The translations under genes and the position numbers were made by a program. From a virus (taxonomy: Duplodnaviria > Heunggongvirae > Uroviricota > Caudoviricetes), in IMG/VR virus record IMGVR_UViG_2617270962_000004, positions 1 through 9,573 of that record: a DNA stretch of 9,573 bases, one strand, 5' to 3'. The notes under the pieces are model-generated. The model saw only the letters and a program-made list of their open reading frames with translations, ran no database searches and was not told the origin of the DNA. The stretch's first letter is position 1. Every line of letters begins with the position of its first letter. Below, piece by piece: positions 3,094-9,573 of the stretch.

Positions 3094-4026
3094 TCACACC
3101 TGTGAGAGTAATTCAGGGTTGGTATAAACCTCTTTAAAGGCCGCATTAATATGTTTTTCTGTCAGCGCCGCGCCTTCACCACTGGCGGTGATCCATGCCT
3201 GGTTAAGCGTATGTGTCAGAACGCGTAACGCTCCCGGCTTTTCAGCGATAGCCTGCATGACGGCCAGCTCGGCCTCACCACTGATCCCCCACGCCATGGC
3301 AATGGCCAGCACATCCGCCTTTTTGGCCTTGCGAAGTTGTTTTGTACGGGCAAGACGGCTGAACAGGCGCGATAAATCATCAAAGGCGCGGCGTCCACCT
3401 TTAAACAATCCGCGCGGGTTACCAATAAGCACCATCCCGATCCCCGTGGCGTCCTGGATTGCCCGGAGTTGCTCCAGACCGTCAATACCAAGATGATCCG
3501 CCTCATCCACAATCACCAGTCCACGCGTTCCCATCAGGCGACGGCGGATGGCGCGGGATAATGCCCCTTTGTTCGCGCGGGTGTAATCAATCCCCAGCGC
3601 ATCGGCCAGCTCCAGCAGACACTCCGTGACGCTGGAGTGCGCGGGTGACAGGGTGATCATCCAGGTGTTTGGTTGCTCCTGGCAGTAATTACGGGCAGTG
3701 GCCGTTTTACCCACACCCGGTACGCCCACAATAACGTTAATACAGCCCATCAGGCGAACCGCCTGAAACAGTGCGCGCAGCTCCTGGACTGTCTGAGTTT
3801 CCACAAACTGCGGCGGTTCCGGCAGTGCGCTTTGTTTATTCCAGTTCTCATACCAGGAGCGCAGGGAAGCAGCCACAGCAGCGTTATCGCCTTTATATTT
3901 TCCCTTACGGAAAGCCGATAATGTGCCGTCGGAAATCCCCGCCTCTCTGGCGATGGCATACTGCGTCAGTACGCCGCCATCAATAAGTTCATCAATGGTC
4001 TTGATTACATCGTTAATATCGGTCAT
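3094..4026 (-). CDS. B: MuB-like ATP-dependent target DNA activator (AAA+ ATPase)
   Basis: Translation contains a Walker A motif (VGVPGVGKTATARNY) and a Walker B-like motif (LVIVDEADHL). It aligns along its length with my recollection of phage Mu B (for example LPEPPQFVETQTV, KPGALRVL). Size 310-313 aa versus 312 for MuB. I prefer the ATG at 4026 (RBS GAGGTG 8 nt upstream) over the GTG at 4035 used by the ORF track. Confidence 0.9.
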   Translation of the reverse strand: MTDINDVIKTIDELIDGGVLTQYAIAREAGISDGTLSAFRKGKYKGDNAAVAASLRSWYENWNKQSALPEPPQFVETQTVQELRALFQAVRLMGCINVIVGVPGVGKTATARNYCQEQPNTWMITLSPAHSSVTECLLELADALGIDYTRANKGALSRAIRRRLMGTRGLVIVDEADHLGIDGLEQLRAIQDATGIGMVLIGNPRGLFKGGRRAFDDLSRLFSRLARTKQLRKAKKADVLAIAMAWGISGEAELAVMQAIAEKPGALRVLTHTLNQAWITASGEGAALTEKHINAAFKEVYTNPELLSQV

Positions 4027-4108
4027 ATTATTCACCTCGCTTGAGACAGCATTCTCCGAGACTGAAACCTCAAATAACCTGAGTCACCCCTCGGGTTATT
4101 TTTTTATT

Positions 4109-6199
4109 TCAGGCCAGCGGATCACTTTCTTTTAATTTCGCTTCGAGCAGTTGCAATCCCCGCTGGAAATTACGCTCGTATTCTTCATCAGGTTCATCGT
4201 CAGCGACAGGTTGCTGAACGGTCACCGTATTACCCACAGGGCGGTAGATGTTTTCCAGCCAGGGCTCCTGCGGCTTGTGCTCCAGCACGTTGACAACCTC
4301 ATCCTCGGCATCACGGATTTTTTCCTCTGCGCGTTTACGCATACCTTTAAGGCGCTGCTGCTGTTTGTAGTATTCCGCGCTGACAGGGAAGGCTTCGCGT
4401 TTATTGCCGTCCCATACCGCCTCGCAAATCACGCTGCCATCCGGGCGGCGCACGGTAATTCGTTCGGCATCATGAATGTCATAGCTGATAAGTACCTTAC
4501 GGCCATGCTCGTCACGCAGCTCGGGCGCGTAGTAAATATTATTCAGCCAGCGTATTTCACAGCGTCTTACAGGGCGCTCCACCATCGGCCGGAACATATC
4601 CCGCAGTTCAACATCGGACAGCCATTCAATTTCCGTGTCCTCTTCCGCCAGGCGTTTTTTTCTGAACTCCGCCGGGCTGTAATGTTTACCGTTCGGCTTC
4701 ATGGGTAATTCATCGTGCGGCCGGTTGTTGTACCACTCAACACCGTCACGAATGGCATCAATCAGTTCAGACCAGGACGGTAAATCACGCATCGCTGACT
4801 GCTGCCGGGCGTTCAGCCGTTTGCCCTGTTGCAGGGCACTGAATGCCGAGCGTAAATCGCGGTTGGTTTTACGTAACGTCTCGCGATCTGCTCCTTTCCC
4901 GAAATAGGTGCGGTATTTACGGGCTATGCGCATCGGTAATGTGCGGTTAAGCCGTTCGATAATGCCCCGTCCCTGCGGATTACCGGCAATCCCTGTCGGG
5001 TGATTAATCCCCAGTCGTGGCAGTATCCCCACAATCTCCTTATCCAGGACGTCGGCGGTTTCCCCGGAGCCATTATCCGAGTAATACAGAAACGGTTTGC
5101 CATGATGGCGAATACCGTGCTGTATGGCACCGGCTACGGCGAAAACATTTTCAGCCAGGTCAAGGCTCCAGCCCACCACAAAGCGCGTGCCACCGTCGAT
5201 AACAAAGGTCACTTCCGGTGCGAATGGCCGCCCGTGAACCGGGTGCGCGCATTTCAGCTTCATGCCGTGACCGTCACCAATCCAGACATAATTCACCGGC
5301 ATTTTTGACCAGTCGCGGCGCGTGAATCCCTCAAGCTGGCGGTATTCACTGCCAGTTACCCGGCCTTTTTGTTTCACCACTTCCGGCAGTTTCTTCATTG
5401 CGCGGCGAATGGTGTCATAAGAGGGCATGATATCGAGCATATAAGGCTCATCAGCGTGCCGGTGCTGCCATTCAGCAACAAAATCCTCGTAAGCCTCGGT
5501 CATTGGTCGGCCGTTTGACTGGCGATACTGCGCCAGAAATTCGGGCAGCCAGTTAATATCTTCGGCTTTTATTTCCTGGCGTTTACCCGGTGCCAGTAAA
5601 AGCAGGCGTTCAGCGGCGTTCTGTGCCTTGTTAAAGGCCGCAATCCAGCGTTTCAGCGTGATTTCACTCAACGCACGGCTGTTTCCCTTTTTGGCGTTCG
5701 CCGTCTCAACCATTGCCACAATGCGCTCGTCCAGTTGCGAACGTGCCAGGTTGTCAACGATAAACCGGATAGCCTTCGCACAGCTGAAACCAGGTTGTTG
5801 CGCGACTTTCAGAACTTCGCTGACGATCGCGATTCGTGCATCAGCCACCTGGCGCTGGTTTTCAGTCAGGGCATTGAGGCGTTCGAGCATCAGTTGTGGT
5901 GATCCGCGATATGCCTCCACCGCATCAACCACGGCAGATGAGCGTCTGGCCTTTGTCACCACCGGAGCCGGTGATTCATCAGCTTTTTGCGTCATCAGTT
6001 GAAGGGCATAACGTTCACGCAATACTTGTTGCGCGCCAGAAGGCAAACAATCGATATTAAATTCGATTGCTTTTGTCCCCTTACGTTTGCGTAACATGGC
6101 TGCATTTCCCGCAGCTGCTTTTGTGAGTCGATGGCGAATGTTATGTTCCATCATTGGTAAATCAGGAAGACCAACACATTCTTTTGCTGTTACCCACAT
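4109..6199 (-). CDS. A: MuA-like DDE transposase (transposable-phage transposase A)
   Basis: 696-aa ORF. The N-terminus MWVTAKECVGLPDLP...GTKAIEFNIDCLP resembles the MuA N-terminal DNA-binding domain (Mu: MELWVSPKECANLPGLP...GKAIEY). Size (Mu A is 663 aa) and position between ner-like and B-like genes fit. RBS GGGGGA lies 4-5 nt upstream of the ATG. Confidence 0.92.
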   Translation of the reverse strand: MWVTAKECVGLPDLPMMEHNIRHRLTKAAAGNAAMLRKRKGTKAIEFNIDCLPSGAQQVLRERYALQLMTQKADESPAPVVTKARRSSAVVDAVEAYRGSPQLMLERLNALTENQRQVADARIAIVSEVLKVAQQPGFSCAKAIRFIVDNLARSQLDERIVAMVETANAKKGNSRALSEITLKRWIAAFNKAQNAAERLLLLAPGKRQEIKAEDINWLPEFLAQYRQSNGRPMTEAYEDFVAEWQHRHADEPYMLDIMPSYDTIRRAMKKLPEVVKQKGRVTGSEYRQLEGFTRRDWSKMPVNYVWIGDGHGMKLKCAHPVHGRPFAPEVTFVIDGGTRFVVGWSLDLAENVFAVAGAIQHGIRHHGKPFLYYSDNGSGETADVLDKEIVGILPRLGINHPTGIAGNPQGRGIIERLNRTLPMRIARKYRTYFGKGADRETLRKTNRDLRSAFSALQQGKRLNARQQSAMRDLPSWSELIDAIRDGVEWYNNRPHDELPMKPNGKHYSPAEFRKKRLAEEDTEIEWLSDVELRDMFRPMVERPVRRCEIRWLNNIYYAPELRDEHGRKVLISYDIHDAERITVRRPDGSVICEAVWDGNKREAFPVSAEYYKQQQRLKGMRKRAEEKIRDAEDEVVNVLEHKPQEPWLENIYRPVGNTVTVQQPVADDEPDEEYERNFQRGLQLLEAKLKESDPLA

Positions 6200-6209
6200 A
6201 CATCCCCCA

Positions 6210-6476
6210 TCAAGCCACTTCTCTGGCGTCCACCTGGTATCTGCTGGGCCAGATTACAGCAGGTTCAACCCCTATTTTTTCGGCGATGGCGGCTTCGTAT
6301 TTACGGCACTGGCGGTAAAACACATTGCGCATTGATCCGCTTTTTAATCCTAACTCCCTTTCCAGTTCAGGGAGGTCTGTGCCTTTGTTTTCAAGGGCTG
6401 CATATACCGCTTTAGCAGACCAGTCACACCCCTCTCGAACAAACAAATTATTCGATGCTTGTCTGGATACCCTCAT
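6210..6476 (-). CDS. ner: Ner-like DNA-binding regulator (Ner/Nlp family)
   Basis: The C-terminal motif PAVIWPSRYQ matches the conserved end of Mu Ner and E. coli Nlp (PEVIWPSRY). It is the first gene of the early operon, directly upstream of the transposase. Confidence 0.8.
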   Translation of the reverse strand: MRVSRQASNNLFVREGCDWSAKAVYAALENKGTDLPELERELGLKSGSMRNVFYRQCRKYEAAIAEKIGVEPAVIWPSRYQVDAREVA

Positions 6477-6632: not shown

Positions 6633-7244
6633 ATGGATAAGGCAGAAAAAACCGTATCCAGTGCGGAACGGTTTATTGATATGGAAGGAATAAACCGATT
6701 TTCAGAACGCTTAGCTATGGCTATGGGAAACATGACAAACGTCGAACTGGCGACCCTTTGTGGACTATCTGAAGCCACAGTAAGAAATTACAGGAAGGGG
6801 AAAAACTTCCCTCCTTTGGATAAACTGGCCTTAATAGCTAAAGCCTGTAATTGTTCACTCGACTGGTTGGCCACAGGCAAGAACGAAGATGAATGCGGAA
6901 AAATCGGAAAAAATTGCGATTCAGGTTCGGGTATTGATCAGGCGCTTAGCTCTCTAAGCCCCCAAGAGAAGCAATTAATCCTTACATTCATCAGGCGAGA
7001 AGGTACTAACAACCTTGTCAGGCTGGCAGCAATGAATACATCTACAATCAGCCAGGATGCGGTAGAAAGCATCATTGATGCCTTGCCATTACGTCCCGTA
7101 CTAAAAAATGCAATAAAGATAGGAATGGCGGGAAGTGAAGAAACAGACAAAGAGATTTTGCGCGTTATTGAGAAGTACAACTCGAGCAATAACGCCACCC
7201 AGGAATCAGGGGCAGTGACAGTAAAGAAAAATGTTGTTGGTTAA
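6633..7244 (+). CDS. prophage repressor, HTH XRE (Cro/C1)-type, 203 aa, functional analogue of Mu c
   Basis: Strong RBS AGGGGG 5 nt upstream of the ATG. Residues about 36-80 (NVELATLCGLSEATVRNYRKGKNFPPLDKLALIAKACNCSLDWLATG) form a typical XRE-family helix-turn-helix. It is transcribed divergently from ner/A/B towards the prophage end, as c is in Mu. I see no LexA-like S24 peptidase motif. Confidence 0.75.
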   Translation: MDKAEKTVSSAERFIDMEGINRFSERLAMAMGNMTNVELATLCGLSEATVRNYRKGKNFPPLDKLALIAKACNCSLDWLATGKNEDECGKIGKNCDSGSGIDQALSSLSPQEKQLILTFIRREGTNNLVRLAAMNTSTISQDAVESIIDALPLRPVLKNAIKIGMAGSEETDKEILRVIEKYNSSNNATQESGAVTVKKNVVG

Positions 7245-7416
7245 GCGCCATCGCTATCATGAGGTGGTGCTGTAAATACATATAGAGATCATATGACTCA
7301 TCCCAAGATAATCACGCTATTGAATAGTAATTCATGATGATTATCATACTGATTATAGTTAGATCGATTATGTGAGCATTTTGGCAGTTTGAAGATGTTT
7401 TGAAGAAGATTTTAAG

Positions 7417-7600
7417 GGTAAATTAGCAGTATCAAATGTGCCGCCGTTTTTTGATCTTTTGACTATTTGTTGAGCAGTCGGTATCAAAAAGAGTTTTCCG
7501 TCCGAAGTATACATCACCTGTTTTATTTCAGCATCTTACAGGTGATTTCACCTCCTTTCACTAAAACCCTTGTCGGTATCAAATGATTCACCTGGTTACA
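7417..7600. repeat. prophage terminus (attL-like) with three direct repeats of a putative transposase end-binding motif
   Basis: Direct repeats AGTATCAAATG (7428-7438), GGTATCAAAAA (7480-7490) and GGTATCAAATG (7575-7585). The element ends ...GGTTACA at 7600, so the other strand reads 5'-TGTAACC..., the 5'-TG terminus typical of Mu-like elements. The exact end is uncertain by a few bp. Confidence 0.55.
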
Positions 7601-8930
7601 CCCATGCGTCTTGATCGACAGAAGTTTTATAATGTGCATCGTTATAATCTACGATGCTGTCCGCGCTGTACGCTTTGCTGGCCTGGAAACCATCCGCAAC
7701 AATGACGCCGCCGTTATCAATTTCACAGGTAGTCGGGTTACCGTACTGACTCAATTCCGCAGCGGTAGCTGTACGCTCGAGACGCCATGGGTTATTGGAG
7801 TTTTCAGCGCTGGTACCCCGTGGGCAATCTTTAGACCCAACCCACCAGGCGTTCTTGTAAACATTACCATTGAAAATAACATGGTAAATTTCGCTACCTT
7901 CCTGGCCGCTCCACGCTTGCAATGAGTAATCGTTAACGCTATCCGCTGGTGTTGATGGCTCGCTGTTATCCGGAGTTGGGGTCACCGGTGTTTCCGGAGT
8001 TGGATCAACCGGAGTCACAGCACCGCCATTATTATCCGGCTTAACGGAACAGGAGCCAGGGTTACCATACTGGCTGATTTCTGTTGCCGTTGCCGCGCGA
8101 ACATAACGCCATGGGTTACTGGCATCGTTTTCTTTCGCATCGCCTGGGCAATTTGCCGCGCCTACCCACCAGGCGTTCTTATAAATGCCGCCGTTATAGA
8201 TAACGTACCATGTAGAAGAACCTTCCTGACCTTTCCAGGCTACTACAGCATAGTTGTCGTTTGACTTATCAGCTGGGGCTGGCTGAACATCAGGAGCCGG
8301 TTTAACGTCCGGTGCCGGTTTCACATCCGGTGAAGGCTGTGGTGCTGAAGTACAGGACTGTGGATTACTGGTTTCTGAGATTTCCGTTGCCGTAGCGGCA
8401 CGAACATAACGCCATGGGTTGCTGGCATCATTGCTTTTCGCATCACCCGGACAGTTAGAAGAGGCTACCCACCAGGCATTTTTATATACCGCACCATTAA
8501 AGACGACATACCAGGTCTGACCGCCCTGCTGTTTATTCCAGGCAACTACAGAAGAATTAGACGGAACAGTGCCCTGTGCTGGTGTAGCCGAACCGCCATT
8601 AGCCGGCGTATTGGATGCAGGCGTATTTGAATTTGAAGAAGATGAGCTGCCGCTCTTTTCGCAGGAAAGTGTATTGCCAAACTGACTAATTTCAGCAGCT
8701 GTTGCGGTACGCTTTAAACGCCACGGGTTAGTTGCATCATTTGCTTTCGCTTTTCCCGGGCAATTTGTAGAAGAAACCCACCAGGCATTTTCATAAATTT
8801 TGCCATCGAAAATAACCTGATATTTATTACCACCTTGTTGGTTATTCCATGCTTCCATTGCCAATGCTGGCAGAGCGGAACACACCAGCCCCATACCAAT
8901 CATAGATTTAGTAAATATATTTAATTTCAT
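7596..8930 (-). CDS. chiA: periplasmic endochitinase ChiA, 5' fragment (signal peptide plus four chitin-binding modules, 444 codons), truncated by the prophage insertion
   Basis: N-terminus MKLNIFTKSMIGMGLVCSALPALA is a signal peptide. Four about 65-aa modules repeat with the pattern AW...Y.V.FNG..Y.NAWWV...CPG...NPWR...TA.EIS, separated by S/T/P-rich linkers. RBS AAGGGA precedes the ATG. The last codon (GTG) and the TAA stop are supplied by the prophage end. E. coli ChiA is about 897 aa as I recall, so the catalytic domain is missing here. Confidence 0.85.
   Translation of the reverse strand: MKLNIFTKSMIGMGLVCSALPALAMEAWNNQQGGNKYQVIFDGKIYENAWWVSSTNCPGKAKANDATNPWRLKRTATAAEISQFGNTLSCEKSGSSSSSNSNTPASNTPANGGSATPAQGTVPSNSSVVAWNKQQGGQTWYVVFNGAVYKNAWWVASSNCPGDAKSNDASNPWRYVRAATATEISETSNPQSCTSAPQPSPDVKPAPDVKPAPDVQPAPADKSNDNYAVVAWKGQEGSSTWYVIYNGGIYKNAWWVGAANCPGDAKENDASNPWRYVRAATATEISQYGNPGSCSVKPDNNGGAVTPVDPTPETPVTPTPDNSEPSTPADSVNDYSLQAWSGQEGSEIYHVIFNGNVYKNAWWVGSKDCPRGTSAENSNNPWRLERTATAAELSQYGNPTTCEIDNGGVIVADGFQASKAYSADSIVDYNDAHYKTSVDQDAWV
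8277..8330 (-). repeat. in-frame 18-bp tandem repeat (3 units) encoding the linker PDVKPA PDVKPA PDVQPA within chiA
   Basis: Minus-strand units CCGGATGTGAAACCGGCA / CCGGACGTTAAACCGGCT / CCTGATGTTCAGCCAGCC, read directly from the sequence. Confidence 0.5.

Positions 8931-9221: not shown

Positions 9222-9573
<352 letters not shown>

Follow-up and report, generated by a model that had tools for sequence, protein, structure and literature searches.

Packaging of phage Mu begins at the prophage's left end. Its packaging site, pac, was reportedly mapped by Groenen and van de Putte in 1985 and presumably lies at about bp 32-58 of this end, where it coincides with an array of short repeats (GGGAG, GGAT, GGGAT and GGGAT) at bp 33-67. 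To our knowledge, the mapping of pac has been coarse and confined to Mu itself, with motif-level recognition by the terminase undefined, and it is the only known cis-acting function of the spacer between the transposase sites L1 and L2, apart from the non-specific binding of HU. HU bends this spacer for the synapsis of the ends by the transposase, and we know of no specific sequence that its binding needs. In phage lambda, the R sites of gpNu1, one of which is inverted, flank an IHF-induced bend (I1) in cosB, beside the site where terminase acts.

Here, we analyse a stretch of E. coli DNA of 9,573 nucleotides (the window) in which a Mu-like prophage, with its left end at position 7600, splits the gene chiA. 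The L1-L2 spacer of this end holds a perfect inverted repeat and several copies of a short motif, within a conserved block of 59 bp (7513-7571, minus strand, bases 30-88 from the left terminus). A sequence-only reading had suggested that these elements bind a host architectural protein or a phage factor shaping the transpososome, or that they control read-through out of the repressor gene; the small terminase did not figure among its options. Given the position of pac in the L1-L2 spacer of Mu, we favour a packaging recognition site: at 7513-7571, the inverted repeat together with the copies of TCACCT/AGGTGA would be the core of the pac region of this phage, read by its small terminase. We put the probability of this reading at roughly 0.55.

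The left end of the prophage and its conserved block

The order of the ORFs in the window matches the left arm of a Mu-like prophage. On the minus strand, the ORF layout points to a gene for a MuB-like ATPase (3094-4035) and to ner (6210-6476). Between them, on the same strand, lies the gene for a MuA-like transposase of 696 aa (4109-6199), which is about 23% identical to MuA of Mu and 55-77% identical to the clade of transposases with TTGATAC sites. The immunity module follows on the plus strand, with a gene for a CI-type repressor (6633-7244; Pfam Phage_CI_repr and HTH_3). Homology to copies at many other chromosomal sites ends at 7600, which is thus the prophage terminus, and the host chiA, cut short by the insertion, lies at 7601-8930 on the minus strand. 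The phage end provides the stop codon of the resulting 444-aa minus-strand ORF (7596-8930), the N-terminal part of this bifunctional chitinase/lysozyme, and the far edge of the window (9392-9573) extends into tuf.

The core TTTGATAC(C/T)G occurs three times at the left end, and these copies are the counterparts of L1, L2 and L3 of Mu. L1, which includes the prophage terminus, spans 7572-7600 on the minus strand (inward 5'-TGTAACCAGGTGAATCATTTGATACCGAC), with its core GTCGGTATCAAA at 7572-7583, bases 18-29 from the terminus. L2 (7477-7495, minus strand) has the core TTTGATACCGAC at 7477-7488, bases 113-124, which is kept in all family members amid otherwise divergent DNA, and L3 (7427-7441, minus strand) has the core TTTGATACTGC at about bases 160-171. 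The inverted repeat is therefore correctly placed between the outer and the inner transposase sites, as had been proposed. The core is common to R1-R3, the right end of the same prophages having three closely spaced transposase sites. Comparison with the equivalent region at this other end, which the sequence-only reading had called for, revealed no such motif: the right ends of five prophages (TATAGCGCGGCGATTTTTTTGATACCGATTTGCATTTCATTTGATACCGCTG...) show no AGGTGA and no inverted repeat, nor does a long spacer separate their first two sites.

Among prophages with both junctions read, five of five are flanked by 4-bp direct repeats (TGAT, CCCG, TGCG, CGTA and TGAC), whereas the flanking repeat typical of Mu is 5 bp. 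The junctions were read at 7597-7604 of the window, at 4357-4365 and 42770-42778 of L001, at about 120-130 and at 37172-37181 of L002, and in L125-L128, L004 and L006. The termini read 5'-T(G/A)TA on the left and 5'-TATA on the right, with TA instead of the canonical TG/CA dinucleotide at many ends. Further inside, an 11-bp unit (CATCTTCAAAA read from the terminus; 7384-7410 in the window) is present in one, two or three tandem copies among near-identical family members (compared with L008 and L009), which accounts for non-coding ends of 356, 367 and 378 bp. The A+T-rich DNA at 7307-7356, just 3' of the repressor gene, is confined to the immunity type of the window. Within it, GATAATCA and TGATTATC form an 8-bp inverted repeat and TCATGATGATTA and TCATACTGATTA a 12-bp tandem pair, and two weak promoter-like matches overlap this DNA. 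In the head-gene clusters of L001 (24660-24739) and L002 (18982-19061), RefSeq places an 80-nt 'tRNA-OTHER' on the opposite strand.

The coordinates and letters of the inverted repeat proved exact. Its inner arm ATCACCTGT (7513-7521, plus strand) forms the last conserved bases before the variable interior, its outer arm ACAGGTGAT is at 7538-7546 (plus strand), and the two match perfectly over 9 bp around a loop of 16 bp with 75% A+T (7522-7537, plus strand). Perfect inverted repeats of at least 9 bp (loop of 3-30 bp) arise in 4-4.6% of the shuffles of the 356-bp non-coding end, so that taken alone the repeat is only borderline relative to chance. The clustering of the motif is far beyond chance. 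Its shared core is the 6-mer TCACCT/AGGTGA, four copies of which lie within 80 bp (7514-7519, 7540-7545 on the opposite strand, 7548-7553 and 7588-7593), and none of 1000 shuffles gave even three copies in 81 bp; the whole window contains 8 TCACCT for 2.97 expected. The variant copy TCACCTCC was found at 7548-7555, precisely where it had been reported, and is joined to the outer arm by a perfect 6+2+6 palindrome, AGGTGA-TT-TCACCT (7540-7553). We also recovered the terminal TCACCTG (7588-7594), 6 bp inside the prophage terminus. This copy is better assigned to the L1 transposase site, outside the proposed packaging signal. The outer half of L1, AGGT(G/A)AATCATTTGATAC, is kept in relatives with a Mu-type spacer (L085 and L093), and the motif copy of L1 is naturally variable, with G>A at positions 9 and 12 (AGGTAA and AAGTGA).

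The same region holds an array of four units phased at 10 bp, (G/C)TG(A/T)AA(G/T), at 7523-7565 on the minus strand, about bases 36-75 from the terminus. Its counterpart in Mu is the array of GGGAT repeats. The units (TTTAGTGAAA, GGAGGTGAAA, TCACCTGTAA and GATGCTGAAA) share four invariant columns, a pattern matched by 0 of 1000 shuffles, and units 3 and 4 fall in the loop of the inverted repeat, which also overlaps an IHF-like match. A mini-ORF following a minus-strand AGGAGG (ATG CTG AAA TAA) was considered and rejected, its ATG being ATA in most family members. A scan of viral contigs for the exact arms (ATCACCTGT-N8-24-ACAGGTGAT) returned, outside the prophage family, only unrelated palindromes in other contexts, and we regard the inverted repeat as family-specific. 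One unrelated viral contig (L150, 10648-10760) has tandem TTCGTCAACAGGTGA units, which contain the same 9-mer by chance.

To study conservation, we gathered 42 copies, in E. coli genomes and in IMG/VR contigs, without conditioning on the repeat. These copies represent 30 insertion sites, 8 immunity types and 11 distinct sequences, and their 30 different outer flanks indicate independent transposition events. The mean pairwise identity of bases 30-88 is 97.5%, and both arms are invariant in 42 of 42 copies. Immediately inside, the 17 bp between the inverted repeat and L2 (7496-7512, bases 89-105) are hypervariable, with 8 unrelated versions and a mean pairwise identity of 46%, and form the inner edge of the constrained block. 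In each of the 234 E. coli records that match, the 88-bp block is preserved with an identity of at least 96.5%, and in 60 of 60 sampled rows the alignment begins at the first base of the inner arm (7513). Among bases 1-88 nine positions vary, including 9 and 12 in the L1 copy, 50 and 52 in the copy at 7548-7553 (natural changes in L003 and L004) and 66 and 69 in the loop, with none in the arms. The lack of substitutions in 18 arm positions, given nine variable sites in 88 bp, has an estimated P of about 0.11, which is suggestive only and not significant alone. The sequence-only reading had staked its proposal on the conservation of the repeat in related prophage ends, and in these 42 copies the block is kept. 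Among 5426 complete E. coli genomes, 233 carry the prophage family, which is common in O157 and other Shiga-toxin-producing strains.

Spacer repeats and the small terminase among relatives of Mu

We used MuB as an anchor, in order that each locus would span both the left end and the gene encoding the small terminase (gp27). In every lineage with a readable end, the L1-L2 spacer contains 3-5 short repeats with a phase of about 10-11 bp. GGGAT-like repeats are found in Mu, Edwardsiella, Sodalis, Symbiopectobacterium, Brenneria, Rheinheimera, several IMG/VR phages, a Vibrio phage and a Klebsiella phage, and GTG(N)GAT repeats in Citrobacter braakii L012 and in L079. Shuffled sequences seldom matched these arrays (0/1000 for the window and for Sodalis, 1/1000 for Citrobacter, 2/1000 for L085 and for Rheinheimera, 7/1000 for Klebsiella, 11/1000 for L115, 19/1000 for Mu and 41/1000 for Vibrio). 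The test, which assumes a rigid period, did not reach significance for L079, L094, L107, Edwardsiella and Brenneria, in which the arrays were called by eye. Inverted symmetry is unique to the window family, and all the other lineages recovered have direct repeats.

The combinations of modules in these loci separate the transposase from the spacer. The window family associates a window-type transposase and TTGATAC sites with a window-type gp27 and an AGGTGA/TGAAA spacer carrying the inverted repeat. L085 also has a window-type transposase (77% identical to that of the window) and TTGATAC sites, together with a gp27 99% identical to that of Mu and a Mu-like spacer, CCGGGAGGAAAGTGGATCAAACGGGATTTGATGGGAT. 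Conversely, Citrobacter L012 has a Mu-type transposase (61% identical to that of Mu) and CGAAA sites, together with a gp27 72.5% identical to that of the window family and an array in register with that of the window. A third site type, TTCAAGATA, is found in L079 with a window-clade gp27 and a GTGAT array, and in L094 and L098 with another gp27 clade and GGGAT-type arrays. The gp27 of L079 was deduced from its near-twin L080, the two having 96-97% DNA identity over the overlapping 8.6 kb. Hence, swaps in three transposase backgrounds indicate that the type of repeat follows the packaging module, and follows neither the transposase nor its sites. The mosaicism is deep, with at least three transposase-site cores (TTGATAC, TTCAAGATA and CGAAA) circulating with interchangeable late modules.

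A short segment of gp27, L-S-x5-R-x-A, tracks the type of repeat in the spacer. It reads SR[ST]G[LF]NR[YL]A in all the recovered lineages whose array is of the GGGAT type (Mu, L085, L108, the third-type clade, Brenneria, Rheinheimera, Vibrio, Klebsiella and Edwardsiella), down to an overall gp27 identity of 39%. In the lineages with GTGAT arrays it is SRGAVWRLA, and the window family has SPAAISREA. We infer from this covariation that the variable segment contacts DNA. L085 and L093 share one left end and have gp27 proteins only 46% identical, so that specificity cannot lie in overall gp27 identity, but would lie in the short segment or in another co-inherited protein. The genes gp27, gp26 and the remainder of the head module are inherited together, and the link of gp27 with the repeats is a correlation. 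In gp26, a winged-helix protein encoded just upstream of gp27, one helix distinguishes the window and Citrobacter from the Mu-like group; yet, this helix is the same in the window and in Citrobacter, though their arrays differ. When we searched gp27 for a helix-turn-helix family or a solved homologue, only Pfam Phage_Mu_Gp27 matched. For a fourth gp27 class (SAAGISRLA), a metagenome scan with the MuB of L103 gave nothing closer than about 50% identity and no left end was recovered. The Shewanella phage MuM16-1 (L122, 1-110) has a left end starting with TGTAACC, like that of the window, a spacer that mixes CGGGAAT, CTGAAAT and GTGAGCAAT units, and the gp27 segment SRAGINRYA; it may be an intermediate recognition type.

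What reads the block

The block is conserved in related ends and is very probably a cis element that binds a protein, within the L1-L2 spacer of a transposable prophage; this part of the sequence-only reading stands. The role in shaping the transpososome that was attached to it finds no support, since the repeats follow neither the transposase clade nor the site core. Identical blocks coexist with repressors of no detectable similarity and with Ner proteins that are 37-46% identical; hence neither the repressor nor Ner reads the block, and both are excluded among the binding factors that had been put forward. MuA is 92-100% identical in those block-sharing copies that have the full-length gene, and gp27 is 97-100% identical in the 7 family loci holding both the left end and gp27. 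In L001, gp27 has 193 aa and is encoded at 29566-30147; several loci of the family share it at 100% identity. The inverted repeat and its loop do not contain the transposase core TTTGATAC(C/T)G.

The position of the block, its restriction to the left end, its constraint, its independence from the immunity and transposition genes and its co-variation with the gp27 clade all fit a site recognized by the terminase. The block would then act in packaging, with gp27 as the protein binding it. Late in the lytic cycle, the small terminase, a gp27 homologue, would bind the repeats in the block, perhaps helped by its winged-helix neighbour gp26 and by a protein that bends DNA at the A+T-rich loop. It would recruit the large terminase, which would cut host DNA just outside the left end, and headful packaging would proceed rightward through the prophage. 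A host bending protein is a possible helper in this process, for which the IHF-like match in the loop is weak evidence. The Sakai prophage Sp18, a putative member of the window family, has been reported as efficiently packaged.

The symmetry of the repeat is a separate matter: it could reflect a real two-fold site, two terminase half-sites around a bend, or a by-product of GGTGA units. It is conceivable, if rather doubtful, that the symmetry has no function of its own and that the functional unit is the 10-bp phased direct-repeat array or the whole block. The 9-bp inverted repeat would then have arisen from repeated GGTGA-like units and would persist because the block is young or constrained. 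The frequency of such repeats in shuffled ends agrees with this, as do the six of nine arm bases that belong to the recurring AGGTGA core and the presence of direct repeats only in every other lineage; moreover, the absence of substitutions in the arms is statistically indistinguishable from the rest of the block. Yet, the arms are invariant over 8 immunity types, whereas the loop and the two remaining AGGTGA copies vary; conservation stops exactly where the inner arm ends; and the arms pair over 9 bp, 3 bp more than the 6-bp core. The arms might also be orphan half-sites of the transposase, resembling the outer half of L1, CAGGTGAAT: they read CAGGTGAT, and unit 2 reads GAGGTGAAAT. But the outer halves of L2, L3, R1, R2 and R3 have no AGGTGA, the copy in L1 varies (AGGTAA, AAGTGA) and the arms do not, and L085 and L093 retain AGGTAAATCATTTGATAC in L1 with a spacer devoid of AGGTGA. 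We find such extra half-sites very improbable.

One might also suppose that IHF, HU or another bending protein acts on the inverted repeat or its loop and bends the L1-L2 spacer for the synapsis of the ends. The location in this spacer agrees with such an architectural site, and the A+T-rich loop overlaps an IHF-like match, TTTCAGCATCTTA (7526-7538; 12/13 to WATCARNNNNTTR, with TGTTTTA upstream), in which the only loop variants (positions 66 and 69) fall in the NNNN of the consensus. However, such matches are as common as expected by chance in the window (17 with one mismatch for 15.6 expected), implying a chance of about 3% of finding one within a 16-bp loop. Besides, a bend would not need 59 bp of near-invariant sequence. 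L085 and L093, of the same transposase clade (77% MuA identity) and with the same L1, carry a Mu-type array and lack the inverted repeat, and it is the packaging module, instead of the transposase, that the repeats follow. These observations leave the architectural site improbable. Least probable of all, to our mind, is an RNA hairpin, acting as a terminator or attenuator of read-through from the repressor gene or as a barrier to transcription coming from host DNA. RNA from either strand of the inverted repeat does fold (-11.8 and -19.1 kcal/mol, z = -3.5 and -4.7), but this follows trivially from its symmetry, and the extended stem of the minus strand draws on non-conserved interior sequence. 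The terminator scan found no terminator-like site, the stem having a 16-nt loop and no U-tract, and an Rfam search of 7200-7700 with E up to 1 gave no match. The element is also kept with unrelated repressor genes, 270 bp past the stop codon across non-conserved DNA. Control of read-through from the repressor gene, as had been suggested, thus has no support here. Packaging recognition by the small terminase remains the reading that we favour.

A proposed packaging site compared with known systems

If this reading is correct, the comparison yields a concrete recognition rule, in which the type of repeat is matched to a short segment of gp27, and the packaging signal travels with the head genes and not with the neighbouring transposase. 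We know of no earlier description of a rule by which the spacer repeats follow gp27 and not MuA; it would be an incremental advance that overturns no established view. It would help to predict which co-resident Mu-like prophages package each other's DNA, and the 59 bp are what a mini-element or a transduction vector of this prophage family would probably need to be packaged. One might speculate further that the L1-L2 spacer is a modular packaging code, whose phased short repeats are read by a gp27 segment of about nine residues, and that it was rebuilt here as cosB-like inverted terminase sites around an IHF-type bend. Since the site lies between L1 and L2, in DNA expected under the transposase complex, such a code could also set the moment at which transposition gives way to packaging. 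This larger proposal is tentative and we would not bet on it; if true, the code would be swappable and would evolve independently of the transposition machinery.

The nearest described counterpart is Mu pac. Both are found at the left end only, between L1 and L2 and about 30-90 bp from the terminus, both consist of several short repeats phased at about 10 bp, and Mu encodes a gp27-family small terminase at the same place in its late region. The repeats themselves differ, since Mu has GGGAT whereas the window has AGGTGA/TGAAA and no GGGAT repeats, so the likeness is not one of sequence. Neither Mu nor any other lineage recovered has an equivalent of the inverted repeat, perfect over 9 bp, with its A+T-rich spacer of 16 bp, and the gp27 segment is SPAAISREA in the window family against SRSGLNRYA in Mu. 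Overall, the window family is about 48% identical to Mu in MuB, 57% in gp27, 72% in the large terminase and about 23% in the transposase, which uses TTGATAC sites where Mu uses CGAAA. The block thus appears to occupy the place of Mu pac, but with a different repeat and symmetry.

In sequence, the closest relatives of the block are the arrays of Citrobacter braakii L012 and of the IMG/VR locus L079, which both start with GGTTTTAGTG. The arrays are in register over four 10-bp units (AGTGGGATCT, GGTGGAATTA, CGTGTGATCT and AGTGAGATTA versus AGTGAAAGGA, GGTGAAATCA, CCTGTAAGAT and GCTGAAATAA), and the gp27 proteins of these two loci are 72-74% identical to that of the window family. They differ from the window in having direct repeats only and no inverted repeat, another gp27 segment (SRGAVWRLA), and other types of transposase and sites.

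The two inverted sites of the window, around an A+T-rich 16-bp segment with an IHF-like match, recall the architecture of lambda cosB, which we use as a working analogy only. The terminase families are unrelated, the spacing in lambda is much longer, and the IHF site of the window is putative; lambda also cuts at a fixed cos site, whereas cutting in the prophage of the window would take place in flanking host DNA. Finally, the block lies in the same spacer as the one that HU binds in the Mu transpososome. In contrast to that HU-bound spacer, the 59 bp of the window are near-invariant and follow the packaging module rather than the transposase.
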